Origin: an uncultured virus (IMG/VR IMGVR_UViG_3300013621_000001) | Lineage: Duplodnaviria > Heunggongvirae > Uroviricota > Caudoviricetes | Reading direction: 5' to 3' (one strand) | IMG/VR virus record: IMGVR_UViG_3300013621_000001 | Length of the DNA: 20,000 bases | Shown here: piece after piece, positions 3,001 through 19,703 of the stretch | How positions within the stretch are numbered: the stretch's first letter is position 1 | Layout: each line of letters opens with the position of its first letter | Program-made: the position numbers and the translations under genes | The notes under the pieces: model-generated | Told to the model about the DNA's origin: nothing | Seen by the model: only the letters and a program-made list of their open reading frames with translations | Database searches by the model: none

Positions 3001-3436
3001 GGCCGCACTGCACTTGAACTACGAAACCATCGAAAAGTACCCGCTCACGATCCAGACCAAGGGACCGCTCACCGACGCCGACTATCGCGTCGAGAAGATG
3101 AAATTCGCCAAGAAGAAAGACCCGGAGACTGGCAAGAACGTCAACGACCGCAGCACCGTGATCTACAACACCAAGATCACCCTGAGCGGTATTCCCGAAG
3201 CGGCATGGGACTACGTGATCAACGGCAAGGCCGCACTGGACTGGGTGATGGAGCGTCAGGCAGTGCGCGTGGACAAGGCCAGCGGCATAGTCAACGACGC
3301 CAACGACTGGGCTATCGAAACGATGGGCAACCCCAAATACCCGCTGGAACTGTTCCAGCGGGTGATCACTGTCAGCCTGGAAACCCAGAAGATCGTCAAC
3401 GCATTGCCGGCGCTGAATATTCACCCGGAGGGCTGA
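1..3436 (+). CDS. Type ISP restriction-modification enzyme (LlaGI/LlaBIII-like: SF2 helicase C-terminal part, coupler, N6-adenine MTase, target recognition domain); 5' end outside the window
   Basis: Frame is open from base 2. Helicase motifs LSEGVDVPALD and QSVGRVMR; MTase motif I ILDPFTGTGTF and motif IV GNPPY; Type ISP-like C-terminal YRPF and YADNLGKELPRIP. Confidence 0.93.
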   Translation, partial: SSREIAGMFQAVVEAYQDAEDIEEGARLTCQAKHVDGGMNAGKKEARLDWLKASTPPDTCRILSNVRCLSEGVDVPALDAVLFLTPRNSQVDVVQSVGRVMRNAPGKQRGYVVLPVVIPAGVEPHEALNDNKTYAVVWQVLQALRSHDDRFDAMVNKLDLVGPDRSKMEVVAIADTVQRKTARLVDSSAKAAKAKGQYAIGEKAERYGPAPDQIGFEFEVGQIERALYAKVVEKCGNRHHWEDWANDIAKIAQTHIDRIKAVLEDASQPKAREAFDAFAHELRDDLNDKVSDGEIIEMLAQHLITKPVFDALFADYSFASHNPMSKAMQAVLDVLHEENLGKEADTLERFYGSVKLRAEGIDSAQGKQKIIVELYDKFFRNAFPKMTERLGIVYTPVEVVDFILHSVNHLLQQEFGQTLGSKGVHILDPFTGTGTFITRLLQSGLIKPEELAHKYRHEIHANELVLLAYYIAAINIEATYHGLAGGDYVPFEGICLTDTFQMYEKEDLVDQLLVDNSARRKRQKQLDIRVIVGNPPYSIGQGSQNDNNQNVSYPTLDRRIASTYAARSEATNSKGVYDSYIRAIRWASDRIGSAGIIGFVTNAGWLEANTADGLRKCLAEEFSDIYVFHLRGNQRTSGETSRKEGGKIFGSGSRAPIAISLLVKNPQASEYGRIFFHDIGNYLSREEKLERIGSYANLEGVPTWQEITPDEHGDWLSHRNSDFEKYIVLGVKQGDYPRVFEAYSQGIVTSRDAWSYNFKRSTLEKNIQRTIDFFNAEVGRLDELLPREDRKGREASLTDFLDADTTRISWSRALKNELVRGREIDFFSEDVKFSLYRPFTKQYVYLNRKLCEYAGMMPAAFPRGESNLFICASGRGADAFSVLMANEPIDFQTLFNGQCFPRYLYDEAAKHSDDGLFSNESSDSPRRRDAITDAGLAHFARVYPDETISKEDLFYYIYGILHSPDYRERYADNLGKELPRIPRVRTSADFWHFSKAGRELAALHLNYETIEKYPLTIQTKGPLTDADYRVEKMKFAKKKDPETGKNVNDRSTVIYNTKITLSGIPEAAWDYVINGKAALDWVMERQAVRVDKASGIVNDANDWAIETMGNPKYPLELFQRVITVSLETQKIVNALPALNIHPEG

Positions 3437-3522
3437 AACGCTTCCGGATATGCCGTGCACACGTTGATCCGTTCATCCCAAGACAAGGGCCTCGCGCCCT
3501 TGGTCTTTTTCAAGGGCTTTAA

Positions 3523-4062
3523 GTGATTCGCTACAAACCTCCTTCCAGAAGAAAAATTGCCCAACAACTCGCGCGTGCGGGTGCGGACGTTAACCAGCAG
3601 ATCGGGGGATCGCTATGGATTTCCTCGAACCTGCAGGGGGTTGGCATCGCCAAGCTGGGCGCTGATGATTTGGGGCATCTGCGCGAAGCAAGGAACATGC
3701 TAGACAAAGCGCTGGGCGAGCTAGCAGCCATGGGTGCACCCTTTGCTTCCAAGCTTCCACATAACTTCCCTATGAACCTGCAGGAATCCGAGCAGCCACT
3801 AGGCTGGTTGAATCCGGACGTTATTGAACCCATCGCACGTGCCGCTTGGCATTTGGATTTTTGCATCGACACTTACCGCCCTGGAAAGAGCAGCGCTCAT
3901 CATCAATTCTGGAAGGAGCTAAATCGTTACTTTGAGGTTGAAGGAATAAAAGCCACCTTCAGCTCATCCAGCCCTATTGTGATGATATTTGCCGAATGTA
4001 CTGGGCTGACCCCAGAATCGGCCTACCACGCAGCCAAGAAATTTCGCAAGGTACAAAAATAG
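3523..4062 (+). CDS. Hypothetical protein (179 aa) upstream of alpA
   Basis: ORF fills the gap between the RM gene and alpA on the same strand; lower GC; no motif recognised; GTG start uncertain. Confidence 0.6.
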   Translation: MIRYKPPSRRKIAQQLARAGADVNQQIGGSLWISSNLQGVGIAKLGADDLGHLREARNMLDKALGELAAMGAPFASKLPHNFPMNLQESEQPLGWLNPDVIEPIARAAWHLDFCIDTYRPGKSSAHHQFWKELNRYFEVEGIKATFSSSSPIVMIFAECTGLTPESAYHAAKKFRKVQK

Positions 4063-4144
4063 AGATTTCCTGGCGATCTTACCCCCTGACTGGGGCACGT
4101 CAAAAAATCACCATTGTCTGCGTTGAACCACATGGAACGCAGCT

Positions 4145-4348
4145 ATGCCCCGCAAGACGTTACTGCGCCTCCCCGGCGTTGAAGACAAGATGGGCCTTCG
4201 TAAGTCCCAGATTTATGCACTCATCAAAGCAGGTGCCTTTCCGCCACCCGTGAAGCTGTCCGAGCGTTGCAGCGCATGGGTGGAATCCGAGCTGGACGAA
4301 TGGATCGAAAGCCGCATTGCGGCTTCGCGGAAGGAGGCTTCTGCATGA
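4145..4348 (+). CDS. alpA: AlpA-family DNA-binding regulator / excisionase
   Basis: LLRLPGVEDKMGLRKSQIYALIKAGAFPPPVKLSERCSAWVESELDEWI is a typical AlpA sequence. Confidence 0.93.
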   Translation: MPRKTLLRLPGVEDKMGLRKSQIYALIKAGAFPPPVKLSERCSAWVESELDEWIESRIAASRKEASA

Positions 4349-4722
4349 TCCAGAAACGACGAGGCCCCGGCGGGAACCGGGGCCATGCACACGCTGGCAG
4401 GCTGGGTGCACGGCAAGTTTACGGTAAGAATGGCCTGAACAGCGCGCGCCTGCCTGAGAACTGGCGGGACCGGCTGCCCGACCCCAGAAGCTACTATCAC
4501 AAGCGTGTTGCCAAATTGGGCAAGGCGCAAGGCGATGGCTGGGCGCAGGGACAATGCCCTTTCCACGAAGACCGTAATGCCTCACTGAGTGTAAATCTGA
4601 GGCATGGCGGCTGGACATGCTTTGCCGGCTGCGATTCGGGCGACTTGGTGAGCTTCCATATGCGCTATACCGGTCTTTCGTTCAAGGCTGCAGCGCGCGA
4701 GCTGCTGGGGCTGCGGTCATGA
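4345..4722 (+). CDS. Stand-alone CHC2 zinc-finger (DnaG-type primase zinc-binding domain) protein, 125 aa
   Basis: CPFHEDRNASLSVN...WTCFAGC motif; ATG 4345 overlaps the alpA stop (ATGA) with AAGGAGG upstream. Confidence 0.85.
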   Translation: MIQKRRGPGGNRGHAHAGRLGARQVYGKNGLNSARLPENWRDRLPDPRSYYHKRVAKLGKAQGDGWAQGQCPFHEDRNASLSVNLRHGGWTCFAGCDSGDLVSFHMRYTGLSFKAAARELLGLRS

Positions 4723-6812
4723 GCGCCGTTTCTGTGGAAGCAGCCCGAACTGCTGCACGTCGGCTGGCTGACGGAGCGATTCGCCGGGGCATGCAACCGG
4801 TCGGGCTGCACGTCTACACCAGCGCCGATGGTGCCCCGCTGTTCTGGCGCATCCGCTGCAAACATCCCGGCACGGGCGAAAAGTGGATTCGGCCGATGCA
4901 CTGGAATGGCAGCGAATATGTCATTGGTGAGCCGCCTGCACCGGTTGCCGGGAAGTCGCTGTACCGCCTGCATGAGCTGGCAAGCGCCGGTGATGCAGCG
5001 ACGGTGTACGTGGTCGAGGGCGAAGCCTGCGCCGATGCCCTGGCCGAGCTGGGCCTGCTGGCCACGACCAGTGGCGGCGCATCAAGTGCTGACGGTGCCG
5101 ATTGGTCGCCGCTGGCGGGGCGATGTGTCCGCCTGTGGCCCGACCGCGACGAACAGGGCACCAAGTACGCTGCCGACGTGGAAGACCGCCTGCGCGCGCT
5201 GGGTAGCATTGTCGAGCGCCTCAACGTGGATGCCCTGGGGCTTCCCGCCAAGGGCGATTGCGTGGATTGGTTGGCGGTGCACCCAGGTGCTGATGCGGTC
5301 GCGGTGAATGCCTTGCCACTGGCAGATGCAGCGCGCGCGGCCAGTCAAGCGGAGCTACCCACCCCAGAGCCGCTACCCGATCCGCTGCCAGCAGTCCCGG
5401 TATTCAATCCGGCCCTGCTACCCGACTGCGTGCGCACTTGGTGCACCGACGCGGCCGACAGCCTGCAAGTGCCGCTGGACTTTACGGCAGTACCGGCGAT
5501 GGTGGGCCTGGCGGCAGCGCTGGGTGGGCGGCAACTTGCTGTGCGGCTCAAAACCCATGGGCATTGGTACGAAAGGCCCATCCTGTGGGGTTGTGTGGTC
5601 GGGCGGCCGAGTAGCGGCAAAAGCCCAGCTTTGTCGCCAGCGCGCCGCCTGCTGGAGAGCGTCGTCGGCCCAGAGCGCGAAGAATACGAAAGGGCTCGCA
5701 AGGTGCACGAGGGCAAGGCGATCCTGGCTGATGCACGCAAAGCGCACGCCAAGGATGAGGCCCGCAAGGCCATCAAAAAAGGGATACCCATCGACCCCGA
5801 GGCCTTGGGCGAATCCGCCCGTTTCGATGATGACGCGCCCACAGAACCCCGCCTAGTGGTCAACGATGCAACGGTGGAAAAGCTGGGCGAATTGTTGAAC
5901 GAGAATCCGCGTGGGTTGATTCAGTTCCGCGATGAGCTGGCCGGGTGGCTGGCATCCCTGGACCGGGAGGGACGCGAGCAGGACCGCGCGTTCTGGCTGG
6001 AGTGCTGGAATGGCACTGGCCCGTATACGTGTGACCGCATTGGCCGGGGAACTGTTCGCATTGAGGCGTGTGCGGTGTCGATCTTGGGCGGCATGCAGCC
6101 GGGCAAGCTGGTCGAGTACGTACGCGGCGCGGTGCGCGGTGGATTTTCCGACGATGGCCTGATGCAACGTTTCCAGTTAGCTGTTTATCCTGACCTGCCG
6201 GCATCCTGGCGCTACACCGACAGGCCGCTGGACCGGGAAGCTGAGGAACGCGCCCGTGCTGCGTTCAACCGGCTTCGCGCGCTGATCCCTGCGGACGTGG
6301 GGGCAGAGACCACCGAGGCCTGCGACATGCCATTCCTGCACCTGTCCGAGGATGCCCAAGCGCTGTTCGTTGAATGGCAGACCGAGCTGATGCAACGGCT
6401 GCGCGCTGGCAGCGAGCCGCCCTTCATGGAATCGCACCTGGCCAAGTATCCCGCCCTGGCGGGCCGGCTGGCACTGGTGCTGCATCTGGCCGACAACGGC
6501 ACCGGGCCAGTCTCCGCCGATGCCGTGCTCAAGGCTTTGGGCTGGTGCGAGCATCTGGAAAGACATGCGCGCCGCATCTATGCCCCTGCCACCGATAACG
6601 GACTGACCGCCGCCCACCTACTATTGCGCAAACGTGACAGCCTCGCCGATGGGTTCAGCGCCCGCGACGTGTATCGCAAGTGCTGGGCCGGCTTGAATGA
6701 TCCGGACACCGTGACCGAGGCGCTGGCGGTGCTGTCCGACCACTACCATGTGATCGAGGTGGCCGAGACAACCGGCGGTCGCCCGTTCACATCCTACCGG
6801 TGGGTGGCATGA
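4719..6812 (+). CDS. TOPRIM + DUF3987/YfjI-type P-loop protein (putative primase-helicase), 697 aa
   Basis: TOPRIM VYVVEGE and WPDRD (DxD); Walker A GRPSSGKS; DATVEKLGELL, RDELAGWL and DGLMQRF as in DUF3987; ATGA overlap at 4719-4722. Confidence 0.85.
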   Translation: MSAVSVEAARTAARRLADGAIRRGMQPVGLHVYTSADGAPLFWRIRCKHPGTGEKWIRPMHWNGSEYVIGEPPAPVAGKSLYRLHELASAGDAATVYVVEGEACADALAELGLLATTSGGASSADGADWSPLAGRCVRLWPDRDEQGTKYAADVEDRLRALGSIVERLNVDALGLPAKGDCVDWLAVHPGADAVAVNALPLADAARAASQAELPTPEPLPDPLPAVPVFNPALLPDCVRTWCTDAADSLQVPLDFTAVPAMVGLAAALGGRQLAVRLKTHGHWYERPILWGCVVGRPSSGKSPALSPARRLLESVVGPEREEYERARKVHEGKAILADARKAHAKDEARKAIKKGIPIDPEALGESARFDDDAPTEPRLVVNDATVEKLGELLNENPRGLIQFRDELAGWLASLDREGREQDRAFWLECWNGTGPYTCDRIGRGTVRIEACAVSILGGMQPGKLVEYVRGAVRGGFSDDGLMQRFQLAVYPDLPASWRYTDRPLDREAEERARAAFNRLRALIPADVGAETTEACDMPFLHLSEDAQALFVEWQTELMQRLRAGSEPPFMESHLAKYPALAGRLALVLHLADNGTGPVSADAVLKALGWCEHLERHARRIYAPATDNGLTAAHLLLRKRDSLADGFSARDVYRKCWAGLNDPDTVTEALAVLSDHYHVIEVAETTGGRPFTSYRWVA

Positions 6813-8029: not shown

Positions 8030-8077
8030 TTTGTAAGCAGTTCAGCTGTATCTTGCTGATTCTGTTGGGTTTTGGCA

Positions 8078-8131
8078 GGGCGCGATACCGAAAAACGATC
8101 TTTCCAAAAGGATCTTTTGAGGTATCGCCCC
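8078..8131 (+). promoter_or_regulatory. Long imperfect hairpin covering the integrase ribosome-binding site
   Basis: GCGATACC (8082-8089) pairs with GGTATCGC (8121-8128); inner AAAA/TTTT and GATC/GATC pairs; SD GAGG at 8119-8122. Confidence 0.55.
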
Positions 8132-9754
8132 TTGCCCAAACCCTATCTTCTACGCCGACCTAGCGGACTTCATGTCCGCTTTCTTGTTCCTGTAGACCTG
8201 CGTGAGGCTATCGGCTCACGCTTCTTGGTCCGCCGCCTCCCCCCTTCTGCTGCTGACCTTGCCCGCCTCGTCGCGGCCCGCATGGCTGTGGCACTCTCCG
8301 AAGCATTCGAGCGCTGGAGAGGTAGCCGCATGGATGGCAAGGATAGAGAAGACCTGCTGAAAGTCGTCAGCGGCTCCATCAACCAGTGGACCGGAAACAT
8401 CCAGCTGCCGAATGGGACTAAGCTCACCGGTCTGAACGTCAATGGGCGAGAAGATGCTCAAGCACTTCTGGAAACGATCAGAGGCTTGGCGTTGCCTGGG
8501 CTCTCGGTTGTGGGACTGCCCAATGAACCCGCCAGCGCAGATTTCACGCTATCCGACCGCATCGCCCTGTATCTGGCGGACCTGAGGAACGCCAAGACCT
8601 CACCCGGCAATCTGCTGGATAGTGAGAACACGCTCATCATCTTCCAGGAAGTCGCAGGACCTGACCTGCTGATGTCGAAGGTAGGGGAAGCCCAAGTCAG
8701 AGCGTTTCTGACAGGACTCCATCACTGGCCAAGCAATGCCAGGAAGAAGAGTGACTACAAAGAGCTGACCGCGCCGCAGATCATGGCCAAGGTCAGGCAG
8801 CAGAGAGATAAGGGCATCATTGTTGCCGGTCTCTCAGATCGGACCCTCGGAAAGCACCGAGACCGGCTTGCCAGCTTCTTTAACGCACAAGTGGCCAGCG
8901 GCATCATCGCGCGCTCGCCCTTGGACGGGATCAAAAGGCAGAACTCGGCACAATCTGTGGCTGCCCTGCCCCGCCGTCAGTTCACGATTGAAGAGATCAA
9001 CAAGATCTTTGAGCCTGAGAATTTCCTGCCCTGGGCTAAAGGGCGACCTGATCGCTACTGGGGCGTGCTGCTGGCGGCAGGCACCGGGGCGCGAGTGAAC
9101 GAAGTTGGCCAGCTCTATACGGAAGATGTTGCAGAAGTGAACGGCATCTGGGGGATCCACATCCGCGCCGTCCATCGCGACCAGAAGCTGAAGAACGCCA
9201 ACTCGCTGCGCTTCATTCCACTACATCCCCGCCTCTTGGATGCTGGGATCCTCACCTATGCCCGTGATGTCATGGAGGCTGGCCATGAGCGCCTGTTTCC
9301 TCACTTGCCTTGGCACAAGAAGGCAGGCTACGGGGATGCCCTCGGAGATCAGTTCCGCGCCTATCTTATTGGCTTGGGCATGATGCAGCCAGGCATGGGC
9401 TTCCACTCGTTCCGACATACTGCGAGCACCCGGCTTCTCTATGCGGGGGTGCTTAGCTCTATTGCCGCTGCCATTACGGGGCACAAGGCGCATATGCCCG
9501 GCGAGCTCGGAACCTATGTAGATGTGCCCACGCTCCAATCGCGCGCAGATGCCGTTGCGCTTCTCCCCATTCCCGAAGGTTTGCCGGTCTATCAGCCTGG
9601 AGAGGCAGCGCAGTCTCTCAGGCAAGCGCAACTCAGAGCGAAGCGGCGGGCGGTCAATGCAGCTGCACGTGAACGAAAAGCGGTCGCTCTTGCCAAAAGC
9701 GCGCACTCCACGACGCCAGCAAGTCGCGTGAGGAAGCCATCAAAGGCGTCGTAG
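8132..9754 (+). CDS. Tyrosine recombinase/integrase with DUF6538-like N-terminus
   Basis: Catalytic set TGARVNE (R), KLKN (K), FHSFRH (HxxR), TGH, GTY (Y); N-terminal LLRRPSGLHVRFLVPVDLREAIG; TTG 8132 with GAGGT 8 nt upstream preferred over 8072. Confidence 0.9.
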   Translation: MPKPYLLRRPSGLHVRFLVPVDLREAIGSRFLVRRLPPSAADLARLVAARMAVALSEAFERWRGSRMDGKDREDLLKVVSGSINQWTGNIQLPNGTKLTGLNVNGREDAQALLETIRGLALPGLSVVGLPNEPASADFTLSDRIALYLADLRNAKTSPGNLLDSENTLIIFQEVAGPDLLMSKVGEAQVRAFLTGLHHWPSNARKKSDYKELTAPQIMAKVRQQRDKGIIVAGLSDRTLGKHRDRLASFFNAQVASGIIARSPLDGIKRQNSAQSVAALPRRQFTIEEINKIFEPENFLPWAKGRPDRYWGVLLAAGTGARVNEVGQLYTEDVAEVNGIWGIHIRAVHRDQKLKNANSLRFIPLHPRLLDAGILTYARDVMEAGHERLFPHLPWHKKAGYGDALGDQFRAYLIGLGMMQPGMGFHSFRHTASTRLLYAGVLSSIAAAITGHKAHMPGELGTYVDVPTLQSRADAVALLPIPEGLPVYQPGEAAQSLRQAQLRAKRRAVNAAARERKAVALAKSAHSTTPASRVRKPSKAS

Positions 9755-10239: not shown

Positions 10240-11811
10240 TCAATGCAACCGCACTCCGGGCTCCTTTGCCTGCCTCATTGCCAGCAGGGCATCAGCCGGA
10301 GCGGACGCTGCAGGATCGTCAGCGGGCGCGCCCCCCAAGACCGGGTATCTACGCAGCAACACCTCACTCCAATTCTCCAGCTGCGACAACGACTCGCCTG
10401 TTCGACGGTTGTAGTCTTCCTGGGCCTTAGGTCCGGTGGCTTCGTGAGCGCGTTGATACTCCTCGCGTCCCAGCTCAACAGCCCGAACCCGGCGCGCCCG
10501 ACGCCGCGACCAGTCTGAGCGATTCAGGATCCCTGGACGTGGGTTTTGGCTTTCGAAGTTCTCCAAGGCAAATTCCGCTTGAGCCAATACGTGCTGGGCA
10601 CGGTCTTCAGCTTTCAGCCTACGCTTGAAGCGTAGCGCGTCCCGCTTCAACTTCTTCAGTCTTACGAGCAGCTCTTCCAAGTCGCCCCGGAGCCTGGGCG
10701 CTGCGACATGAGCGGATATCAAGGCGGCACTGTTGCGCAGCAACCTGCGCGTAAATCTAAGCCGATCTCTCAACGCTTCGATCCATGCCTCGGCCCAAAT
10801 CTCTATCACAGCCTTCAACGCCTGCTTGGATGCGGTGGCCTGCGGCTGCCGCGTCCCGTCATCGGCAACCGCCCCAACTGGCATGGCTTCCCTACCCCCG
10901 TTAACCAGACGAGTCGCTCCACCAGGTGACAGCATTGGTAGGATCAGGCGATGCGAAGCAACTTCGCGCGGGCCGACCGGCATGGCTTGATCGGATGCGG
11001 GCTCCATCAGCCTGCCCTCTCCTGCCATCTCGGCCACGGCTCGATCCCAAGCGGCACTGTTGGCCTGGTGGATCCCGTCATTGCCCTGCTTAAGGACTGT
11101 ATCGGCGCCTCGGCGATGAAGCGCCGTCGCGTCTTTGCCCATATGAAGTCCTGGAGCACGGGAAAGCTCCGCCGCTGTAAGCTCATCTCCTTGCTCTGCA
11201 GCCTCAGCCGCTTGGTCCTTAAGGCTACGATGATCGACACGGGCCGAGACACCTGCAGCAGCAAGATGGGCATTGATGGCTTCCCCTACCATTGCCCGGA
11301 TCCATTCGACTTCCCCTCGGCCTGAAGGGCCGCCATCCAGCTCCCTGGTCTTGTCCTTCAACCCGTCTGCGTCCATCCGCCTGGTCGTGGCTAGGATGTG
11401 GACGTGATAGTTGAGCCCGTCAGCGGTCTGCGGCTCATGGATGCTGGATTGGACAGCGAACCTGTAACGCTGGACCAAGCAGCGCGATATTTCGGCTGCA
11501 AGGTCTGAACGCTGCTCATTGCTCAGTTCGTGCGGCAGCGCTACTTCGAACTCCCTAGCGACCGTGGCGTCTTTTCGGCGCTCCGAAGCCTCGGCGGCAG
11601 GCCAGAGCCGCCGAGGATCGAAAGCCCAGTCAGGCGCCTCATCTGGCGCCAGACACCGGGTTTCGACAACGCCCCCTCGCCTTCGATAGTCGTGCCGGAG
11701 ACCGGTGCGGTCATCGATGATGAGCAGCCCCGCCCTGTAGGCAGCTGCAGCTGTGGATGCGTGCCCTTGGGCACGGCTGAAGGTCTTTACTCTGGTGTGA
11801 TAGATGGCCAT
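10240..11811 (-). CDS. mobA: MobA/MobL-family (MOBQ) conjugative relaxase
   Basis: MAIYHTRVKTFSR...AAAAYRAG, AREFEVALPHEL, IHEP...NYHVHILATTR (HUH), VDHRS; ATG 11811 with AAGGAG. Confidence 0.93.
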   Translation of the reverse strand: MAIYHTRVKTFSRAQGHASTAAAAYRAGLLIIDDRTGLRHDYRRRGGVVETRCLAPDEAPDWAFDPRRLWPAAEASERRKDATVAREFEVALPHELSNEQRSDLAAEISRCLVQRYRFAVQSSIHEPQTADGLNYHVHILATTRRMDADGLKDKTRELDGGPSGRGEVEWIRAMVGEAINAHLAAAGVSARVDHRSLKDQAAEAAEQGDELTAAELSRAPGLHMGKDATALHRRGADTVLKQGNDGIHQANSAAWDRAVAEMAGEGRLMEPASDQAMPVGPREVASHRLILPMLSPGGATRLVNGGREAMPVGAVADDGTRQPQATASKQALKAVIEIWAEAWIEALRDRLRFTRRLLRNSAALISAHVAAPRLRGDLEELLVRLKKLKRDALRFKRRLKAEDRAQHVLAQAEFALENFESQNPRPGILNRSDWSRRRARRVRAVELGREEYQRAHEATGPKAQEDYNRRTGESLSQLENWSEVLLRRYPVLGGAPADDPAASAPADALLAMRQAKEPGVRLH

Positions 11812-11912
11812 TGATGCTCCTTGTTCTGGCCCCCGCACTTGCCTTTATGCCTACGTTTTAGGCTTTGGCAAGCGCTTTTTTAGGGGGTCAAGGGGCACAG
11901 CCTCTTGCGCAC

Positions 11913-11953: not shown

Positions 11954-12748
11954 CTATTCTTGGGCCTCGCCTGAAGCCTTTCTCACTCGGCCTCCCCGCT
12001 TCCCTGGCAGGGTTTCAAGGCATTCGAGAAGTCTCTCCGCATATACAAATCCGATTCGCCTGACCTTATCCTCATCAAAGTAGAACAACCAGCTCAGCAG
12101 AAGAAGAACAGAGACAGCCAGTGTCAGACCCGCAGGCAAACCAGGATCCGCCAGATTGACAGGCTTGATGGCAAGAGGGGTAAAAGAGATCACCCTAGCA
12201 ATGACCAAGCCGTAGAATATCCCGATAACACTTGAAGTAACACCCGGCCCTCTCATCGCCAACATATTACGATGAAAGCCGTAAGCGATATTCTCTGTCA
12301 AAAGCAGGGTTTTATTTCCCCTGGTAAGCTCCCGCAACCTTCTTGTTGCTCCCGTGTAGGCGTCGTCGGCCGCAACTGGATCACTTGCCTCCTGCTCTGC
12401 AGTTGGCATATCGATTCCCAGCTTGCTCACAATGCGTTCGTGATACCGCCTTGTTGTTACGCCGTCCAAAAACCTATCACGGTGACGCAAGGCGATGGTA
12501 GTGGGCATCCCCCCCCACCTCTGAACCAGTCGCTCTTCAAGCTTCTTCCCTCGACCTCGCGCAATACTAGCCAGGGCGTACATCACCCCACAGGAAGCAA
12601 GCAGCCCCACGACCGCCACGAGAACTGGATGCCGGGGTCCATACACACAAACTAAAGGGATCAGCACGGGAACAGCGACAAGCAGCGCGGGAGTGAGCCG
12701 CGCTTTACGGTCGTACGGATCCTTCATCTGCTGGATCAAACTAGACAT
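11954..12748 (-). CDS. Membrane protein of unknown function (about 4 hydrophobic segments), 264 aa
   Basis: DPYDRKARLTPALL followed by two hydrophobic stretches, a soluble loop, ENIAYGFHRN, then two more; ATG 12748 with GAAAGGGA. Confidence 0.8.
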   Translation of the reverse strand: MSSLIQQMKDPYDRKARLTPALLVAVPVLIPLVCVYGPRHPVLVAVVGLLASCGVMYALASIARGRGKKLEERLVQRWGGMPTTIALRHRDRFLDGVTTRRYHERIVSKLGIDMPTAEQEASDPVAADDAYTGATRRLRELTRGNKTLLLTENIAYGFHRNMLAMRGPGVTSSVIGIFYGLVIARVISFTPLAIKPVNLADPGLPAGLTLAVSVLLLLSWLFYFDEDKVRRIGFVYAERLLECLETLPGKRGGRVRKASGEAQE

Positions 12749-12804
12749 GGAATCCCTTTCAGAGTGAAAGCACAAGCCTTATGCGTTAATAAACCAGCAA
12801 AGAC

Positions 12805-13878
12805 TCAGTCCCTCTCTTGATCGGGCGGATATGGAGTCTGTGAAATTGAGCTCCAACCTTCACGCTTAATACCGCTAGAAAGGCAGACGCTTTTACCTTC
12901 GGTCTTAACAAAATGCGCACCTCGATGCAACATGGCACGCACCACCGAATTCCGGGGATGATCTTCATCAGCCGCAGCAGAGCTACAGACGGCGTTCCAC
13001 GTATATGACTTAGGTATTTCAGCAAGCCGCTGCCCCAACCACCGATCTAGTAGTTCCGTGTTTACGTTGCGGCGCCCGCCGTGGTGTGGCACCTGAAATC
13101 CCCATATGCCCGGCAACGGAACGCCGATAGCCTCGATGTAGTCTGCAGCCTCTTTTAATCCATCCCTCCCGGTGTCGCCCGTCAGAAGAATGCGCTTTCC
13201 ATTGATCGATGCTGTCTGCACGACACTCATCTCGTTCTCGGCGCTTGTTCCTCCAGATGGAAAGTATTCATCCCCCCATGCGGCCAAGACCAAGTTCTTA
13301 GCTGCTCTGAATACACGCCCCAACCCCTCTAGAGCCGCATCCAACACCGTTTCCCCGGCAGATTCAGGAGTTTTCTCGGAATCGACCACTAGATCGAGAT
13401 AGCGTGACTTCGTCGGTGCCAATACAGTAAAGGCACCGATCTGAGCGCCCTGGAATGGCGCCTTGATTTCCACACCTTTTTGCATCGCTATTTCTTCGAG
13501 CTTTGCTGACGCACTGTACAACTCGCGAAGCTTCCTTCGTAACGCATCCACTGAATTGTAGGTCTCAAACCTACTGATCAGTTCTTCAGCATAGAGCCAA
13601 GGCCTATTCATCCACAGCGTTCCCACCGTGCATTGTTCAAGGACCCGCTGCAATCCATTAGCGTGATCCCTGTCAGGATGCGTCAAAACGACATGATTAA
13701 TGACCGTCCCACCGTAGTGTTTCTTCAAGTGCTCGACGAGCTTATCCCCGGTATCGAGGTAGCCTCCATCAACAACATGAATTTGCGTCAATCCATCAAT
13801 AGAATAACGGAGCGCAATTGCATCCCCACTCTTTGAAGTCTCGACACCGAGAAAATCAATCTCTACGAAATCAGCCAC
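12805..13878 (-). CDS. ComEC/Rec2-type metallo-beta-lactamase-fold hydrolase (soluble), 357 aa
   Basis: GDAI, VVDGG, THPDRDH (HxDxDH), LLTGD, QVPHHG, HP; GTG 13878 with GGGGAAGGA. Confidence 0.88.
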   Translation of the reverse strand: MADFVEIDFLGVETSKSGDAIALRYSIDGLTQIHVVDGGYLDTGDKLVEHLKKHYGGTVINHVVLTHPDRDHANGLQRVLEQCTVGTLWMNRPWLYAEELISRFETYNSVDALRRKLRELYSASAKLEEIAMQKGVEIKAPFQGAQIGAFTVLAPTKSRYLDLVVDSEKTPESAGETVLDAALEGLGRVFRAAKNLVLAAWGDEYFPSGGTSAENEMSVVQTASINGKRILLTGDTGRDGLKEAADYIEAIGVPLPGIWGFQVPHHGGRRNVNTELLDRWLGQRLAEIPKSYTWNAVCSSAAADEDHPRNSVVRAMLHRGAHFVKTEGKSVCLSSGIKREGWSSISQTPYPPDQERD

Positions 13879-13939
13879 GTCGTCCTTCCCCTGGATCAGA
13901 TCTGAATGGATGAAGCTCAATAGTGAGAACCGCATCACA

Positions 13940-14614: not shown

Positions 14615-15094
14615 TCAGTCGATGAGTAGGCAGTGACTGCCCGGATTCGTTGCAGTGCCAGGCAGTACTTCGCTATCGATCACTGACCCGGCCTTGTTGA
14701 TGACGATGACGATCTGGCTAGGCCGGGCGGAGGAGTCCTCCTCACGCTCGCCGAGATAAGCCAGAGCGATGGCGTCCTTGAAGTCATAGACCTTGCCGAA
14801 GCCGATAACGCTTTGTGCGTCCGGAGGCAAAAGAACGGGCTTGCCATCAAGCTTGATAGCGCGCTTGTAGTCCAAGCCTTCCAAAGGTTCGATGCGGCCG
14901 ATCCTGGTTCGGATGGGCCCAGTGGGCGTTGCGGAGCCGTGACCCGTCGCCCAGATGAACTCGGAGACCTTGGGATGCACTACCCCAGCCGCCTTGAACT
15001 GACCGCTCTGCAACTGACATGAGAGGCTGGGCGCAGCCTCAGCAGAAGCGGCGAACGCCAGGAGACCCATTACTGCCCAGCACTTCATATCCAT
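14615..15094 (-). CDS. Secreted/periplasmic hypothetical protein, about 159 aa
   Basis: Signal peptide ending ASAEA; GGAGG SD; Cys near each end of the mature chain. Confidence 0.75.
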   Translation of the reverse strand: MDMKCWAVMGLLAFAASAEAAPSLSCQLQSGQFKAAGVVHPKVSEFIWATGHGSATPTGPIRTRIGRIEPLEGLDYKRAIKLDGKPVLLPPDAQSVIGFGKVYDFKDAIALAYLGEREEDSSARPSQIVIVINKAGSVIDSEVLPGTATNPGSHCLLID

Positions 15095-15115
15095 ACGACG
15101 GCCTCCAGGTTGAAT

Positions 15116-15172
15116 TTTGCGTTGAACGCAAATGACCAGCTAAGCTTATGCCGTCAAACTCTGGAGAGTCAA
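15116..15172 (-). promoter_or_regulatory. Promoter/operator region of the leftward envelope operon
   Basis: Minus strand TTGACT-N18-TAAGCT; palindromes TTTGCGTT-G-AACGCAAA (15116-15132) and ACTCT-GG-AGAGT (15158-15169). Confidence 0.55.
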
Positions 15173-15190
15173 CGTGTTTGTTTCTGCCGG

Positions 15191-15526
15191 ATGCCCGCTC
15201 CTCAGCCCACGCCCACAGCCCTCGGTCATCGCCTACGCGCAGCACGCGTTGCCAAAGGCTGGACCCAAGCTCAGCTAGGCGAAATGCTTATGGGCGTAGA
15301 TGACTCAAATACGACGGCCCCTCGGATCAGCCGATATGAACGAGGAATGCACAAGCCAGACCTAGAGACCATCGAGAAGCTCGCAGGGCTTCTAGACCTT
15401 CCTGCGGCCTACTTCCTGGCGGCATCGGATGTTGTCGCTGAGGCCATCCTGCTGCTTTCTCAGCTTGATGCCAAAAAGCAGAAACAAGCACTTGGGCTGA
15501 TTAAGAGCCTGATAGACGCTTCATAG
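15191..15526 (+). CDS. XRE-family HTH transcriptional regulator, 111 aa
   Basis: RLRAARVAKGWTQAQLGE...ISRYERGMHKPDLETIEKLA. Confidence 0.9.
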   Translation: MPAPQPTPTALGHRLRAARVAKGWTQAQLGEMLMGVDDSNTTAPRISRYERGMHKPDLETIEKLAGLLDLPAAYFLAASDVVAEAILLLSQLDAKKQKQALGLIKSLIDAS

Positions 15527-15627
15527 CAGCCGCAACCCACTTCTGAAATAGCTTCAACGATTACTACGCTACAGATGCACCGTTAGACCTTCACCTGCGA
15601 TGGGCATGAAGCCCAAGGAGTGATCGT

Positions 15628-16725
15628 ATGACCTGCGAGATAGTGAACGTCGGAAAGAGGCGAGACGGGGGAAGCCGGTACTGGTGCCTATCCCATCATG
15701 CAAACGCCACCGCAAAGTATGGCGTGGCGGCAGAAGAATGCGTGGCCGCGCATGACGAACCCATTTCGGAGAGTGAGTCTCTTGATCTTGAGGTCAACCG
15801 CTACGTCGGGGGGATAGCACTTTGGGGGTCAGTGCCCGCGTCATACGACACTACCACCCTGCCCACCGATAGAGGCATCCATGTCCATGCCAGGCGCTTG
15901 GGCCGGGACTCAGCCAAGGACATCGACAAGACATATCGAAGGCTTAGGATCCCATTCACGACAGACTTGCTGTCCTCAGAATGGTTTGTCGTGGATGAGA
16001 TCGACGCAATCAATTACATGGTGTCTGGGGTCTTCGGCTTCGGAACCATCAGTGTCAAATGCAGCCACTGCGGCTTCCCTCACCTGGACCGCGACTGGTT
16101 CGCAGTCCATCCTCACAGGAAGCATCAGTGCCATGGATGCGGAAGACAGTTCTCCGACTCGGAAATCGCGATAGGAAACCCTCTCTCGCAGTTGAGGAAC
16201 CACCTTGAGCCGGGCAATCGATCCCAGATAGCTGCGCCAAGAAGCATAGAGATACGCCAACAGGACTACCCAGGAGGGATACAGATCTGGGGATCAAATC
16301 CTGCCATTCTCTGGACATCAACGGCTCCTGAAGAAACCGGAATCCATCTACACGCGCTGAGCGAGGAAGGCCAAGAGTGGCCCAAGATAGACGACACGTA
16401 TAAGTCCGTCGTGATAGATGGCATCGAACTTGATGCCGAACAAGTGCGCTACTACATGGCGCAAACAGCACTGCCGCACATCGAAGGACGCGTCGTGGCT
16501 CTGTCATGTCCGCGCTGCAAAGAGCCTCACTTCGATAAGGGACAATGGGCATATACGCCCCACATTGACCACGAATGCCACTTCTGCAGAGCGATCTTCC
16601 AGAATCCGTCGCAGATCAAGAAGACGATATCGAACCCGTTTGTCGAGACACGAGCACGCCTTTCCAAGCATACGAATCGAATTCTTCGTGAAGACAAGCT
16701 AGGGTTGCGCCCCGAAACCATCTAG
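15628..16725 (+). CDS. Hypothetical Cys/His-rich protein with an internal domain duplication, 365 aa
   Basis: AAGGAG SD; two copies of GGIxxWGSxPA...GIHxHA...IDxTY...CxxCxxPHxD...PHxxHxCHxC...IxNP. Confidence 0.85.
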   Translation: MTCEIVNVGKRRDGGSRYWCLSHHANATAKYGVAAEECVAAHDEPISESESLDLEVNRYVGGIALWGSVPASYDTTTLPTDRGIHVHARRLGRDSAKDIDKTYRRLRIPFTTDLLSSEWFVVDEIDAINYMVSGVFGFGTISVKCSHCGFPHLDRDWFAVHPHRKHQCHGCGRQFSDSEIAIGNPLSQLRNHLEPGNRSQIAAPRSIEIRQQDYPGGIQIWGSNPAILWTSTAPEETGIHLHALSEEGQEWPKIDDTYKSVVIDGIELDAEQVRYYMAQTALPHIEGRVVALSCPRCKEPHFDKGQWAYTPHIDHECHFCRAIFQNPSQIKKTISNPFVETRARLSKHTNRILREDKLGLRPETI

Positions 16726-17223
16726 CAGGGTCACTTCTTTGGCAAAGAAGTCCACATCGATCTGTGGAAGATAGCCACCGAGCTTGCGCATCTCTTCATA
16801 GGCGAGATGCGCAGCTTCAGTTGAGATCAGTCCTTGGCTACAGGCTCGTTGCATCAACCCCAAAGAGCCGGTCACCAGCGACTCATGCCCGAGCCGCTTG
16901 ATAGCCGCCTTCCGGGCCCGGCCGTCATCACAAGCGATCTGGCACTGGATGGCGGAGGCAATGAGGATGCACTCGGTCTCGCCATCACCGAGCCCCATAT
17001 CATTCTTCGCCGCCAGAAATGCCGAATATGTGACCAATCCGTCGTCAGCAAGGGTCAAAGATCCCTTGGCAAGCTCCAAGTCCAACACTTCGGCAGCCGA
17101 TGAAGCCTCATCTCTCACCAAGCCTCCGACTTGAAAATCTACACCTTCGATACCCAAGACCGTATCAAAGACCCCGCCATTCACGAGGTTGATGACTGTC
17201 GAAGCGTCGAGAAGCACTATCAC
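16699..17223 (-). CDS. PIN-domain-like protein (putative ribonuclease toxin)
   Basis: VLLDASTVIN, VRDEA, LGDGETECI, ACDDGRARKAA, VTGSLGL; start is GTG 17223 or ATG 17253. Confidence 0.8.
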   Translation of the reverse strand: MIVLLDASTVINLVNGGVFDTVLGIEGVDFQVGGLVRDEASSAAEVLDLELAKGSLTLADDGLVTYSAFLAAKNDMGLGDGETECILIASAIQCQIACDDGRARKAAIKRLGHESLVTGSLGLMQRACSQGLISTEAAHLAYEEMRKLGGYLPQIDVDFFAKEVTLLDGFGAQP

Positions 17224-17227
17224 GCTG

Positions 17228-18355
17228 CTACTTCGAGTTAGCGGCGAAGACATGGGAGATGGGGACGTTCAAAAGCTCAGCGGCTTTACCGGCAGAGAGC
17301 TCCTCACGATCCACGAGCTTCGCAGCAGCCTCAAGCAGCCTAGGCGAAGTTGAAATCTGTATCTCCTCTCGTTCCCGAAGCCCCAGCTCTCTCGCTCTCT
17401 TCTCAGGATTTCCATGCTCGTCTGAGATCTTCTGATACAGCGCCCTAGCGCCTCCTGGCTCCAGCAACCCCAAGCCTTCGCAACGGCGTGCGGCGACCTC
17501 AAAGCTCACCCCGAAGAAAATTGCAGTGGTCAGTATCTCCACGTCCCCGAGCGGCCCCTTTGCTCGGTAGTGAGTGCGAACCGCTTCAAGCGCCTTCAAG
17601 AACCCTTTCCGGGGCATTAGCAAAGAAGCCGCGAAAGCATCGGCAAAACGCTCTTCGTTCCGATGTTCAGCCAAGCCAGCCGTCTCTCTGTCTCCACCCA
17701 CCTCTTCGTCCAATCTTGCGAAGTCAATCTTTAGCAAGTCATGGCGCGCTACGAGGTGTCCAACTTCATGAGCAAGGGTGAACAGCATCCGTGCCTTGAA
17801 GGTTCGAGGAGCAAGCAGGATCAGTGCGTGGCCTTCGACAATCGCCGAAACACCTTCGATCTTAGGGTCCCTTCCATAGCAGACCAAGACCCCCAACTCC
17901 TCCAAGGTAGTTCCAAGACTAAGAAAAGGAACTTGGTCATCCAGCTGTGCGAACGCCCGTCTAAAAATGGCAGCAAAGTTCTCTGCGGTTTCGAGATCAG
18001 GAGCCAGGCCCCTGAACAGCTCCAGCCAATTGAGATTGGAAGGCAGAAGTCTTGCTACTGAGAGTATGTCGTTTAGCTGATCACCGATGATGCTCAGAGA
18101 TGAAGACATGCCCCTTGCACGCTGATCAATGGTCTGCCTCAGCAGGAGCTTGGAAGTGCTCTGATCCTCAGTTGATTCCGGCCGCCCAATCGAGCTCAAC
18201 GGAACACGGATTGCCTTTGATATTTTTCTTATTTCCGACAGTGATGCCTCATCACCCGAGACGATCTCGCTAACACGGGAAACGGGCAGGTTCGCCCGTC
18301 GGGCCACATCACTGACCGTGAGACTGCGATCCGCGATGTGCTGCGCAATATCCAT
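17228..18355 (-). CDS. XRE-HTH + ImmA/IrrE-family zinc metallopeptidase, 375 aa
   Basis: N-terminal HTH; FTLAHEVGH (HExxH); NEERFADAFAASLLMP; C-terminal LSAGKAAELL. Confidence 0.9.
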   Translation of the reverse strand: MDIAQHIADRSLTVSDVARRANLPVSRVSEIVSGDEASLSEIRKISKAIRVPLSSIGRPESTEDQSTSKLLLRQTIDQRARGMSSSLSIIGDQLNDILSVARLLPSNLNWLELFRGLAPDLETAENFAAIFRRAFAQLDDQVPFLSLGTTLEELGVLVCYGRDPKIEGVSAIVEGHALILLAPRTFKARMLFTLAHEVGHLVARHDLLKIDFARLDEEVGGDRETAGLAEHRNEERFADAFAASLLMPRKGFLKALEAVRTHYRAKGPLGDVEILTTAIFFGVSFEVAARRCEGLGLLEPGGARALYQKISDEHGNPEKRARELGLREREEIQISTSPRLLEAAAKLVDREELSAGKAAELLNVPISHVFAANSK

Positions 18356-18945
18356 TACTTCCTAGCTTCCCTCTTCAAGGCCTGGAGCTCTTCTCTCAGA
18401 CGAATAGCTTGCTCTTCAGTCAACTTTCTCATGCGCCCGATCACTTGTTGGATTCGCGTAGAGCCTGGACGATCAAACAGACTGGCGAGGATGTCTACTG
18501 ATCGCTCCCTGCCAAGCTGGATCTCCCGAGGCGTCTGAAGGATGACGGAGGTCCGACCAACCAGATAGTTCTGGATTCGCCTCTCAAAGTTGTCGTGATG
18601 GTCTTCGGGATGATGTCGTCCGTCTGCAGTCACAATGATGTTGCCCAGCCTCTGGCCGGACTCGTCAAATCTGAGCCGATTCTCTGGGAACTGATCGAAA
18701 GCTGCGACCTGACTGGACAGCTTATCCTGGACCTCAAGCCCTCCAATCACATATTGCTGAACGTTCTTCCCCATGCTGCCGCTTATCACGAAGATCTGAT
18801 CGCCTAACTTCACCCTGCGGCGCAGGTCAGGCCGACAGGTTCCCATGGTCGATTTCGCTTTCTTGTCCGGTTGCAAGATCGGGTCTACTAGCGCTTTACC
18901 CATACCAGGGTCAGAACCAGGGGAAACGAATATGTAACTCGACAC
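18355..18945 (-). CDS. Hypothetical protein, Nmad2-like (nucleotide-modification-associated domain), 196 aa
   Basis: TMGTCRPDLRRRVKLGDQIFVISG resembles the recalled Nmad2 motif TLaTCKPxIRRxaxvGDwi; GTG 18945 with GGAGGT; TAATG overlap with the next gene. The gene is solid, the family call tentative. Confidence 0.6.
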   Translation of the reverse strand: MSSYIFVSPGSDPGMGKALVDPILQPDKKAKSTMGTCRPDLRRRVKLGDQIFVISGSMGKNVQQYVIGGLEVQDKLSSQVAAFDQFPENRLRFDESGQRLGNIIVTADGRHHPEDHHDNFERRIQNYLVGRTSVILQTPREIQLGRERSVDILASLFDRPGSTRIQQVIGRMRKLTEEQAIRLREELQALKREARK

Positions 18946-19169
18946 GCCACACCTCCAATCCATGTGAAGACGAAGCCCAGAACCAGACCCGCCGTGGCGG
19001 CCTGTTTTGCGATTTGTACCGCATGCCGAGCCACCTTACTAGTGCCCCTCCCTACACCCCATGCAGAAGGAAATCCCCGGCCGCCCCTTAGAGAGGCGGC
19101 GGTCTGATCTCAAGTTGTGAGATAGCGTCGCTATAGTCTCGCGTTCGACCATATCCTGAGCAGCCAGGC

Positions 19170-19703
19170 ATGACATCGATTAGCGCGCTTTCACTTTCTT
19201 CGATCCCAAGAAATATGGCGGGCTGGTGGCTTGAACACCCCCCGACTGTGCGCCTATACCTTGGAGGAGTCGCGTGTATGCTCCTGAGCATCGCGCTCTT
19301 CCTCCATGACCCCAGATCGCTGGCATCCGATGTCGCGACGTATGCAGGATGCGCACTGCTCGCATCTGCTTTCCTAACGGAGTGCTACTACTGGACCGTC
19401 GAGAGACTCAACTACCCCCTGATGAAACTGGCCATCACCGTATTGGGTGTCGTGACCCTCGCGGCTGCAACAGGGGTAAGCAAGATCACGGTCAACGATG
19501 CTACGGGTCAAGATCCGTCCTATTTCACCAGCGCAGTCGCGCTTCTGGTTCCGCTTTCGTTTGTTCCAGTTGCCGCTGCCCTCGTCATTATCTTAGGCAC
19601 TTTCGGCGTGATCATCGGCCTTATATGGGGACTAGCAAAGCTCGGCACGGCCTCATCCAAGGTCTGGACCGCCCAGCCTTTCGTAGACATCTTCGAGCCA
19701 TAA
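19170..19703 (+). pseudogene. Membrane protein gene interrupted by IS3 at 19664/19665
   Basis: About 4 hydrophobic segments; the frame runs into the IS left end and stops at 19703. Confidence 0.65.

Follow-up and report, generated by a model that had tools for sequence, protein, structure and literature searches.

A 20,000-nucleotide stretch of DNA from an uncultured virus (IMG/VR record IMGVR_UViG_3300013621_000001, Caudoviricetes), here called the window, carries on its plus strand, at positions 15628-16725, an open reading frame (ORF) for a 365-residue protein. A preliminary description of the DNA had reported this ORF, which is present as described, and had read its product as two copies of a metal-binding domain that could be assigned to no family. 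The question raised by the locus is what such a protein does, and with which partners. We gave the protein the working name TGT and examined its sequence, its homologues, and the genes around them. The TGT gene was found in a cassette whose other members encode o202, a protein with a predicted PUA-like fold; a peptidase of the M78 (ImmA/IrrE) family that carries an Xre-type helix-turn-helix (HTH) domain; and a ribonuclease (RNase)-type protein, either PIN-like or HigB-like. This company of an RNase toxin, a PUA-like reader, and a peptidase of the Xre-M78 type is the main new clue and was absent from the preliminary description. The gene probably belongs to an undescribed bacterial anti-phage cassette. 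The positions of the features in the window are listed in Table 1.

Internal duplication and putative metal ligands of TGT

The TGT gene starts with an ATG, six bases ahead of which lies an AAGGAG Shine-Dalgarno sequence. Comparison of residues 1-199 with residues 200-365 by BLASTP gave an E value of 3e-20, with 31% identity over 154 columns. Judged from this self-alignment, the tandem duplication is real and far beyond chance. Every motif pair listed in the preliminary description was reproduced: YVGGIALWGS/YPGGIQIWGS, GIHVHA/GIHLHA, IDKTY/IDDTY, CSHCGFPHLD/CPRCKEPHFD, PHRKHQCHGC/PHIDHECHFC, and IGNPL/ISNPF.

Each repeat is bipartite. A β-strand G-x-H-x-H-A and an (I)D-x-T motif are followed by C-x2-C-x3-H-x-D-x8-H-x2-H-x-C-x2-C, an N-P pair, and a helix. 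The β subdomain of repeat 1 contains G61-G62, W66, G83-x-H85-x-H87-A-R89, K97, D100, and T102, and its putative zinc module reads C145-x2-C148-x3-H152-x-D154-x8-H163-x2-H166-x-C168-x2-C171, followed by N184-P185 and the helix. The corresponding β motifs of repeat 2 are G216-G217, W221, E235, G238-x-H240-x-H242, D255, T257, and Q279, with a putative zinc module C294-x2-C297-x3-H301-x-D303-x8-H312-x2-H315-x-C317-x2-C320 and then N336-P337. TGT has the two CxxC knuckles at β-hairpin turns, with four putative ligands, that define a zinc ribbon. The repeats are preceded by an N-terminal mini-domain, to which the AlphaFold2 model gives short strands at residues 5-10 and 16-20. In total, the 365 residues include eleven Cys and twenty His.

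Conservation and extent of the TGT family

Residue conservation was scored in 120 non-redundant full-length TGT homologues. All eight ribbon Cys, in two CxxC...CxxC sets, are kept in 115 to 120 of them, as are H85, H87, H152, H163, and H166 of the first copy in 115 to 119. In the second copy, H240 and H242 are found in 118 homologues, H315 in 106, H301 in 98, and H312 in 91; the zinc-module His are stricter in repeat 1 (96 to 99%) than in repeat 2 (76 to 88%). At least 90% of the homologues share D100, D154, D255, N184, N336, W66, W221, R89, K97, E235, and Q279, and D303 is kept in 80 to 90%. The 4-Cys ribbon, His, and Asp that the preliminary description had assigned to each copy are therefore conserved features, and the His residues, whose fate among homologues it had left as a check, are retained. 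It had also suggested a further site at the N-terminus; C3, C20, H23, and C38 bore this out (115 to 119 homologues, and invariant in A3, a narrower alignment used for a metagenome scan), whereas H24 is not conserved (44 of 120). In the broad alignment, A1, 24 of the 64 TGT members are without the N-terminal ~50 residues and represent either true short forms or wrong gene starts.

A 90%-clustered collection contained 988 TGT relatives at E≤1e-3, nearly all of 360 to 370 residues. A collection clustered at 50% identity gave 422 clusters, and 129 of these reached E≤1e-30. The sources include Xanthomonas, Lysobacter, Burkholderia, Paraburkholderia, Polaromonas, Variovorax, Acidovorax, Zeimonas, and many metagenomes, and the source labels are "hypothetical" or, in JGI and one NCBI record, "transposase-like protein." The gene is rare: 401 genomes sampled across the class yielded one full-length match, and two other matches were short ribbon pieces.

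Fourteen longer or N-extended TGT relatives gave no Pfam match. P0243 and P0244 form a TGT subfamily with ~90 to 180 additional N-terminal residues, in which a stretch …W S x G R T L G x I… is common to both. This extra region belongs to no Pfam family and is unrelated to o202, and comparison of P0243 and P0054 with o202 showed that neither contains it.

Family and fold searches

TGT had no match in Pfam, PHROGs, or PADLOC, and its sole match in NCBIfam was ECs_2282_CxxC (E 0.0055). Against the sequences of the PDB, the single TGT sequence gave no match and a TGT profile found zinc fingers only, the best being a LIM domain (E 0.0034). When the 64 A1 members were compared with Pfam at E≤10, only zinc-ribbon families were present among the best 25 of 209 families; these included Cas12f1-like_TNB (42 of the 64 members), DZR (40), and TackOD1 (39). 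The best Cas12f1-like_TNB match reached an E value of 2.5e-5 and spans just the ~35-residue ribbon. Ribbon matches of this kind explain the "transposase-like" label.

The AlphaFold2 model, built with A1, has a mean predicted local distance difference test (pLDDT) score of 96.1 and a predicted template modeling (pTM) score of 0.93; it is mostly β, with one helix per subdomain. These values indicate that TGT, as modeled, is one rigid, compact body of two lobes. A Foldseek search of the whole model against the PDB returned 0 matches at E≤1e-3. Our statement that TGT has no known fold applies to this whole model, and by that measure the fold may be new. BFVD contributed two short confident matches to Burkholderia phage proteins (49 to 58 columns, 33 to 34% identity, probability 1.00), which fall in the ribbon part, and the ESM Atlas returned TGT's own cluster and small zinc-ribbon clusters only, all below 0.9 except the former. 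The preliminary description had proposed structure prediction with Foldseek as a check and had been unable to name a family. The single confident model agrees with its picture of two packed copies, and the searches of Pfam, NCBIfam, PDB, PHROGs, and PADLOC gave no full-length match to a characterized family.

Small stand-alone zinc-ribbon proteins of phages and prophages (the ECs_2282 family NF047912, a 75-residue protein of Burkholderia phage Maja, and BcepF1 A1YZU8) resemble the C2-HD-H2-C2 module of each TGT repeat. These are single modules of ~60 to 75 residues and of unknown function, whereas TGT has two, each on a ~95-residue β subdomain without a match.

Several known catalytic centers were compared with TGT. 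HNH, PD-(D/E)XK, and GIY-YIG were absent both from the fold searches and from the best 25 Pfam families. Small His-Me motifs can escape family and fold searches. The His-Me finger (HNH) is a β-β-α element in which strand 1 ends in the catalytic His and the helix carries an Asn or His that binds metal. The order of elements in TGT is compatible with this topology: a strand at 163-167 with H163 and H166, a CxxC turn, a strand at 174-183, N184-P185, and a helix at 186-193. The candidate Asn is kept in both repeats; no HNH profile or fold matched. HIT proteins carry H-φ-H-φ-H/Q-φ-φ on an α+β fold, and GalT is pseudo-dimeric. TGT reads H-V-H-A-R and H-L-H-A-L, in which the third position is not H/Q, and no HIT or GalT chain appeared in the fold searches; this assignment is not supported. 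Metallo-β-lactamase (MBL)-type centers combine HxHxDH with further His or Asp on an αβ/βα fold. The number of ligands in TGT is similar (five His and two Asp per repeat), but HxHxDH, the Pfam family Lactamase_B, and a matching fold were not found, and this candidate is not supported either. A cytidine-deaminase-like H..E/PCxxC center, considered on sequence grounds only, likewise has no support; the motif is absent from TGT, and the model is mostly β.

A conserved cassette in three gene orders

We examined 17 loci from species genomes, 80 from metagenomes, the nearest genome, and one plasmid, and located the partners of TGT using tblastn and hidden Markov models built from the loci. Among the 98 loci with TGT, o202 was present in 74, the M78 gene in 73, and a PIN or HigB-like gene in 66. 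Loci without partners mostly end within ~1.5 kb of TGT; L015, L048, and L075 extend for 3 to 6 kb on one or both sides and are still without o202. When the count was restricted to the 27 loci flanked on each side by 3.5 kb or more, o202 was found in 26, the M78 gene in 25, and a PIN or HigB-like gene in 23. Four of the 27 are incomplete: L015 and L016 hold decayed TGT remnants, the PIN gene of L013 was seen by tblastn and missed by the ORF-based scan, and in L063 the HigB-like gene went undetected. These counts are not all independent, because L002, L025, and L026 are one contig and L010 and L011 are near-identical. The nearest genome also carries the cassette, with a TGT 99% identical to that of the window.

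The genes occur in three orders. In order A, that of the window and of loci with a TGT identity of at least 53%, TGT is convergent with an operon of o202, M78, and PIN genes, whose short overlaps with one another measure 4 bases in most loci. The stop regions of TGT and PIN either overlap by 4 bases or abut in most of these loci and overlap by 27 bases in the window (16699-16725), and antisense or transcriptional interference at this 3' overlap is possible. In order B (~46 to 54% TGT identity), a HigB-like gene is followed by HTH-M78, o202, in some loci a second M78 gene without an HTH, and TGT; two loci depart from this in that TGT faces the four genes listed before it in convergent orientation. 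The second M78 gene between o202 and TGT is seen, for example, at 4086-4970 in L084, 1453-2364 in L077, and 2325-3275 in L090, and in L049, L064, and L071 it is convergent and lies just past TGT. In order C (42 to 45% TGT identity), TGT, o202, M78, and PIN are all co-directional. This order is found on plasmid p3 of Azospirillum argentinense, where RefSeq annotates one gene as "ImmA/IrrE family metallo-endopeptidase" and the other three as "hypothetical."

The recurrence of the same genes in three orders points to function rather than to common ancestry of one arrangement. In L074 and L096, TGT and o202 occur alone, without an M78 gene, which suggests that the two form a unit. As a constant accessory, this pair accompanies two flavors of Xre-M78 plus RNase TA (toxin-antitoxin)-type modules, and it can stand alone. 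A complex prediction for TGT (A1) and o202 (A4), run without controls, scored 0.00 and weighs neither way.

In three loci the cassette has decayed. TGT is in pieces in L015, L016, and L017; the PIN gene of L017 is also in two pieces, and the partners in L015 and L016 are mostly gone. Decay seems to affect the cassette in its entirety.

A scan for promoters and terminators across 14900-19300 gave scores at or below the expectation from shuffled sequence. Six RNA-labeled runs (X15 to X20) contain the window region 15000-19100 at ~97% identity. In the four that were examined, the region lies on contigs of 3 to 26 kb that span all the genes, and the longest records reach 26 to 58 kb. Given such long contigs, the libraries probably hold DNA, or the labels are loose, and we do not take these runs as evidence of transcription.

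Partners of TGT

The o202 model has a pLDDT of 95.4. Its best Foldseek matches were MJECL36 (1.6e-4) and the EVE protein THYN1 bound to 5-methylcytosine DNA (4.5e-4), followed by ASCH, PH1033, and McrB-N. By its predicted fold, o202 falls squarely among PUA-like modified-base readers. The fold matches also include enzymes, namely the RNase ZmASCH and the amidohydrolase YqfB. The protein is basic, with an isoelectric point (pI) of 9.7, and its invariant residues are Cys43, Asn108, Asp121-x-His123, and several Arg. Eight of nine members matched the Pfam family Nmad2 ("nucleotide modification associated domain 2") weakly, with a best E value of 0.002; the match stays below threshold (17.9 bits against a cut-off of 26.1) and covers 47 residues only. 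A search of the literature on Nmad2 found nothing relevant.

The M78 protein of the window matched Peptidase_M78 (2.6e-14) and HTH_3 (1.3e-6) in Pfam and, in PADLOC, capP (5.4e-16) and 12 RmrA models (best 7.7e-16). Its counterparts in order B matched the PADLOC model PD-Lambda-2_B nearly end to end (5.6e-40 and 9.4e-31). For the PIN-like protein, Pfam gave DUF3368 (1.1e-3) and PADLOC gave PDC-S70 (9.7e-8, and 3.2e-14 for the L003 orthologue). The motifs DA(S/C), GETE, and DD..AR are invariant in eight orthologues, and the acidic PIN residues are kept. The product of the first gene in order B matched the Pfam family HigB-like_toxin below the cut-off in all four proteins compared (E 2.6e-5 to 8e-3), and these proteins matched no PADLOC model at E≤1e-3. 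Like TGT, o202 matched no PADLOC model.

In the window, the gene immediately preceding TGT, on the strand that also encodes TGT, is a small HTH gene resembling those for restriction-modification (R-M) control (C) proteins. Its product matched the PADLOC model Control_protein (1.2e-19, model positions 3-95 of 101) and the Pfam family HTH_3. A perfect 8+8 palindrome, TTTGCGTT-G-AACGCAAA, is located at 15116-15132, upstream of the likely start of this gene at ATG 15191. Using tblastn, we found the small HTH only in close relatives of the window (L001, L018, L021 to L023, and L027), and L027 has a different HTH (43% identical) in the same position, though its TGT is 95% identical. Control proteins precede restriction endonuclease genes, and by analogy a control-protein-like HTH ahead of TGT is no more than suggestive of that layout. 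A true R-M system with such an HTH is not supported, as the cassette contains no methyltransferase.

Relation to known defense systems

The cassette was compared with three kinds of system. PD-lambda-2 of Escherichia coli is reported as an experimentally shown three-gene abortive-infection system made up of a HigB-like A, an Xre-peptidase B that is toxic alone, and a P4-antitoxin-like accessory C, which according to that account is needed for defense and not for neutralization (Vassallo et al. 2022, PMC9519451). Order B cassettes resemble it in that they open with a HigB-like gene, continue with an Xre-peptidase gene matching PD-Lambda-2_B, and end with accessory genes. They differ in that the accessory genes are o202 and TGT, sometimes with a second M78 gene, and not a P4-antitoxin-like PD-lambda-2C. 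The window differs further, as its M78 protein matches RmrA and capP rather than PD-Lambda-2_B and is paired with PIN rather than HigB. Taken across the cassette, the B component is strong just in order B, the A component is weak, and the place of C is taken by o202 and TGT.

RosmerTA is described as an ImmA-type antitoxin with a toxin (Millman et al. 2022 preprint), and a later study reports that the toxins found beside antitoxins of the RmrA type are diverse, that some are PIN-like, and that the order of the two genes varies (Ernits et al. 2023, PMC10440598). The 375-residue HTH-M78 protein of the window is RmrA-like in its domains and matches, and its gene is translationally coupled to the PIN-like gene. 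RosmerTA, however, is described as a two-gene system, whereas here four genes are constant (in 23 to 26 of the 27 loci with full flanks), o202 and TGT being as constant as the M78/toxin pair.

In modification-dependent restriction enzymes, a PUA-superfamily sensor fused to a nuclease is presented as the standard build (PMC7897488, PMC6765204), and according to a preprint from 2026 a methylated mononucleotide is sensed by a PUA module (10.64898/2026.01.15.699771); both patterns fit the function favored below for TGT and o202. The cassette shares with type IV PUA-plus-nuclease enzymes, such as the EVE-HNH enzyme VcaM4I, a PUA-superfamily modified-base sensor, which by predicted fold is o202. In contrast to those enzymes, the reader and the putative effector are on separate polypeptides, TGT lacks an HNH, PD-(D/E)XK, or GIY-YIG match, and the cassette has a TA-type core, which those enzymes do not have.

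The system is related to RosmerTA and PD-lambda-2 as an unrecognized variant, and the TGT family, though widespread, is rare and has so far escaped annotation. Our literature search, which covered papers without their supplements and combined IrrE, PIN, COG2856, PUA/ASCH/EVE, and phage defense, found no description of this cassette, and the text of the survey of EVE domains (PMC7641849) makes no mention of Zn-ribbon, M78, COG2856, or ImmA.

Possible functions of TGT

We tentatively favor the reading that TGT is a soluble enzyme of pseudo-dimeric build with several metal sites, whose substrate is nucleic acid or a nucleotide, and that with o202 it forms the accessory module of a TA-type abortive-infection system. 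Metal binding, catalysis, the substrate, the role in defense, and contact between TGT and o202 are all what we infer. Each copy of TGT would carry a Cys4 zinc ribbon with an interleaved second ligand set, His3Asp, and an H-x-H...D-x-T motif on a β-sheet. o202 would recognize a modified base or nucleotide that marks infection, and TGT, through two symmetric H-x-H/Asp metal sites, would cleave the nucleic acid so marked or process it in some other way. The HTH-M78 protein would repress or neutralize the system until the trigger arrives; together with the RNase, PIN in the window and HigB-like in other lineages, it would form a core responsible for regulation and abortive infection. The H-x-H/Asp residues are kept at ~98% in both copies and are accompanied by conserved Arg, Lys, Glu, and Gln outside the ribbon; in this, the positions resemble an active or ligand site more closely than a structural site. 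A more specific form of the proposal, which we regard as doubtful, makes TGT a new fold class of metal-dependent nuclease. Each repeat would then hold a binuclear center (H-x-H/Asp plus the His3Asp of the ribbon), and the two repeats would mimic a homodimer cutting both strands. With the PUA-like reader acting in trans, the whole would be a "split" modification-dependent restriction enzyme, checked and backed by the Xre-M78/RNase module.

Several observations weigh against an enzymatic, defensive TGT. Zinc ribbons were all that the searches matched in TGT, with no catalytic family or fold, whether nuclease, hydrolase, or other, among the results, and every conserved His and Asp could have a purely structural role as a zinc ligand. 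An RNase toxin is already present in the cassette, so a second effector is not required, and TGT might only sense or scaffold. The protein is slightly acidic (pI 6.4), whereas many nucleic-acid binders are not acidic. No TGT homologue was found in 50,697 phage records (tblastn, E≤1e-3) and only 1 in 72,556 plasmid records. Proteins of 640 to 2,000 residues included no fusion of TGT to a nuclease or PUA domain, which is weak evidence. Finally, in 10 of 23 other loci the flanking genes are housekeeping or unassigned only.

Some of these points favor a somewhat unlikely alternative in which TGT is a non-catalytic scaffold with five or more zinc sites. By itself or jointly with o202, this scaffold would bind nucleic acid or a protein of the phage and signal to the M78 peptidase to free the PIN or HigB toxin. 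The similarities found for TGT are limited to zinc ribbons, the eight ligands C2-HD-H2-C2 lie within ~27 residues, as is consistent with a double structural zinc module, and the toxin is in place. The third gene of PD-lambda-2 offers a parallel, as by the published account it serves defense and not neutralization (PMC9519451), and some order B loci have a second M78 gene directly ahead of TGT. A scaffold of this kind fits less well with the H-x-H...D-x-T motif, outside the ribbon and so strictly kept in both copies together with R89, K97, E235, and Q279, and with the TGT-o202 pairs of L074 and L096, which have no M78 protein to signal to. The enzyme-like invariants of o202 (Cys43, Asp121-x-His123, Asn108, and several Arg), its recurrent Nmad2 match, and the existence of ASCH-type PUA-like enzymes such as ZmASCH and YqfB would suit a different division of labor, in which TGT and o202 modify or demodify bases or nucleotides of host DNA, RNA, or tRNA and the TA core provides addiction or regulation. 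We consider this improbable: the Nmad2 match is short and below the Pfam cut-off, the literature offered nothing relevant on that domain, and the fold searches revealed no methyltransferase, glycosylase, deaminase, or oxygenase fold in TGT.

Very unlikely, in our view, is a zinc or redox switch, in which oxidation of Cys in TGT frees zinc or alters its shape and so controls the M78 metallopeptidase. The eleven Cys, twenty His, and three Cys-rich sites of TGT and its constant linkage to a zinc peptidase speak for such a switch, and IrrE-type peptidases are reported to respond to zinc; it leaves unexplained the link to a PUA-like protein, the conserved non-Cys motifs, and the loci without M78. 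We give hardly any credence to a transposase-like or TnpB-accessory protein of a mobile element. The database label and the Cas12f1-like_TNB ribbon matches point that way, but the similarity is confined to the ribbon, no RuvC, DDE, or other transposase domain or fold was matched, and the gene moves within a four-gene cassette whose varied flanks share no family. A small chance is left for any other explanation.

Should the favored reading, a TGT enzyme paired with o202, be correct, Xre-M78 TA defense of the RosmerTA and PD-lambda-2 types would have an unrecognized four-gene form in which recognition of the trigger, or killing, rests on a PUA-like reader and on TGT with its apparently new fold. 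Modified bases or nucleotides would then be testable candidates for the trigger of such systems. About 1,000 sequences now labeled "hypothetical" or "transposase-like" would gain a family annotation, and structural biology would gain in TGT a compact, confidently modeled duplicated metal-binding domain. A TGT with nuclease activity would bring a new catalytic scaffold into the repertoire of restriction enzymes.

The window and the flanks of other loci

Table 1. Features of the window and the evidence for each
Feature	Position	Strand	Evidence and remarks
Type ISP restriction-modification enzyme	23-3436 (frame open to base 2; start cut by window edge)	+	Type_ISP_C 3.2e-109, ISP_coupler 1.5e-50, helicase C and N6 methylase parts
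DUF3987 protein	4617-6812	+	Pfam 3.7e-94
Tyrosine integrase with DUF6538	8072-9754	+	Pfam
MobA/MobL relaxase	10240-11838	-	Pfam 4.5e-44
273-aa ORF adjoining PDC-M48B gene	11954-12775	-	No Pfam, NCBIfam, PADLOC, or PHROGs family
MBL-fold protein, PADLOC candidate PDC-M48B	12805-13938	-	Near end-to-end match, 1.2e-151
159-aa ORF	14615-15094	-	N-terminal signal-peptide-like stretch; no family match
Small HTH protein, R-M control (C) protein-like	15110-15526	+	Directly upstream of TGT, same strand; likely start ATG 15191
TGT	15628-16725	+	365 aa; putative N-terminal C3H zinc knuckle and two copies of a ~150-aa domain
TGT N-terminal mini-domain (residues 1-45)	15628-15762	+	C3, C20, H23, C38 as putative zinc ligands
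TGT repeat 1 (residues 46-198)	15763-16221	+	Self-alignment, conservation, predicted secondary structure; weak family and fold matches confined to zinc-ribbon part
TGT repeat 2 (residues 199-350)	16222-16677	+	Self-alignment, conservation
PIN-like nuclease	16699-17253	-	184 aa; DUF3368/PDC-S70-related; 3' end overlaps TGT 3' end by 27 bases
Xre-HTH and M78 (ImmA/IrrE) peptidase	17228-18355	-	375 aa; HEVGH present
o202	18355-18963	-	202 aa; predicted PUA-like (EVE/YTH/ASCH-type) fold with C-terminal helices; first gene of convergent operon

As shown in Table 1, the window looks like an integrative mobilizable island; it contains no tRNA genes. Conservation of the 159-residue ORF at 14615-15094 does not extend beyond close relatives of the window (L001, L018, and L021 to L023). 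The relaxase adjoins the cassette in eight loci, which are near-identical islands; outside such islands no further flank family recurs, and the flanks vary by locus. The preliminary description had placed TGT among defense-like cargo, and this setting extends beyond the window, as 13 of the 23 other loci have defense or mobile-element genes in their flanks. These genes include Wadjet JetC/JetD-type genes, Mrr, HsdR with an integrase, MazF, AAA_21, a reverse transcriptase, Fic, relaxases, and IS21. In L006, SbcC-like and DUF3323/DUF2399 genes, which we take to be of the Wadjet JetC/JetD type, lie beside the cassette (6-4980). An Mrr-type endonuclease gene adjoins it in L008 (5143-5856), and an integrase and a type I HsdR gene do so in L013 (3409-4629 and 10130-12574).

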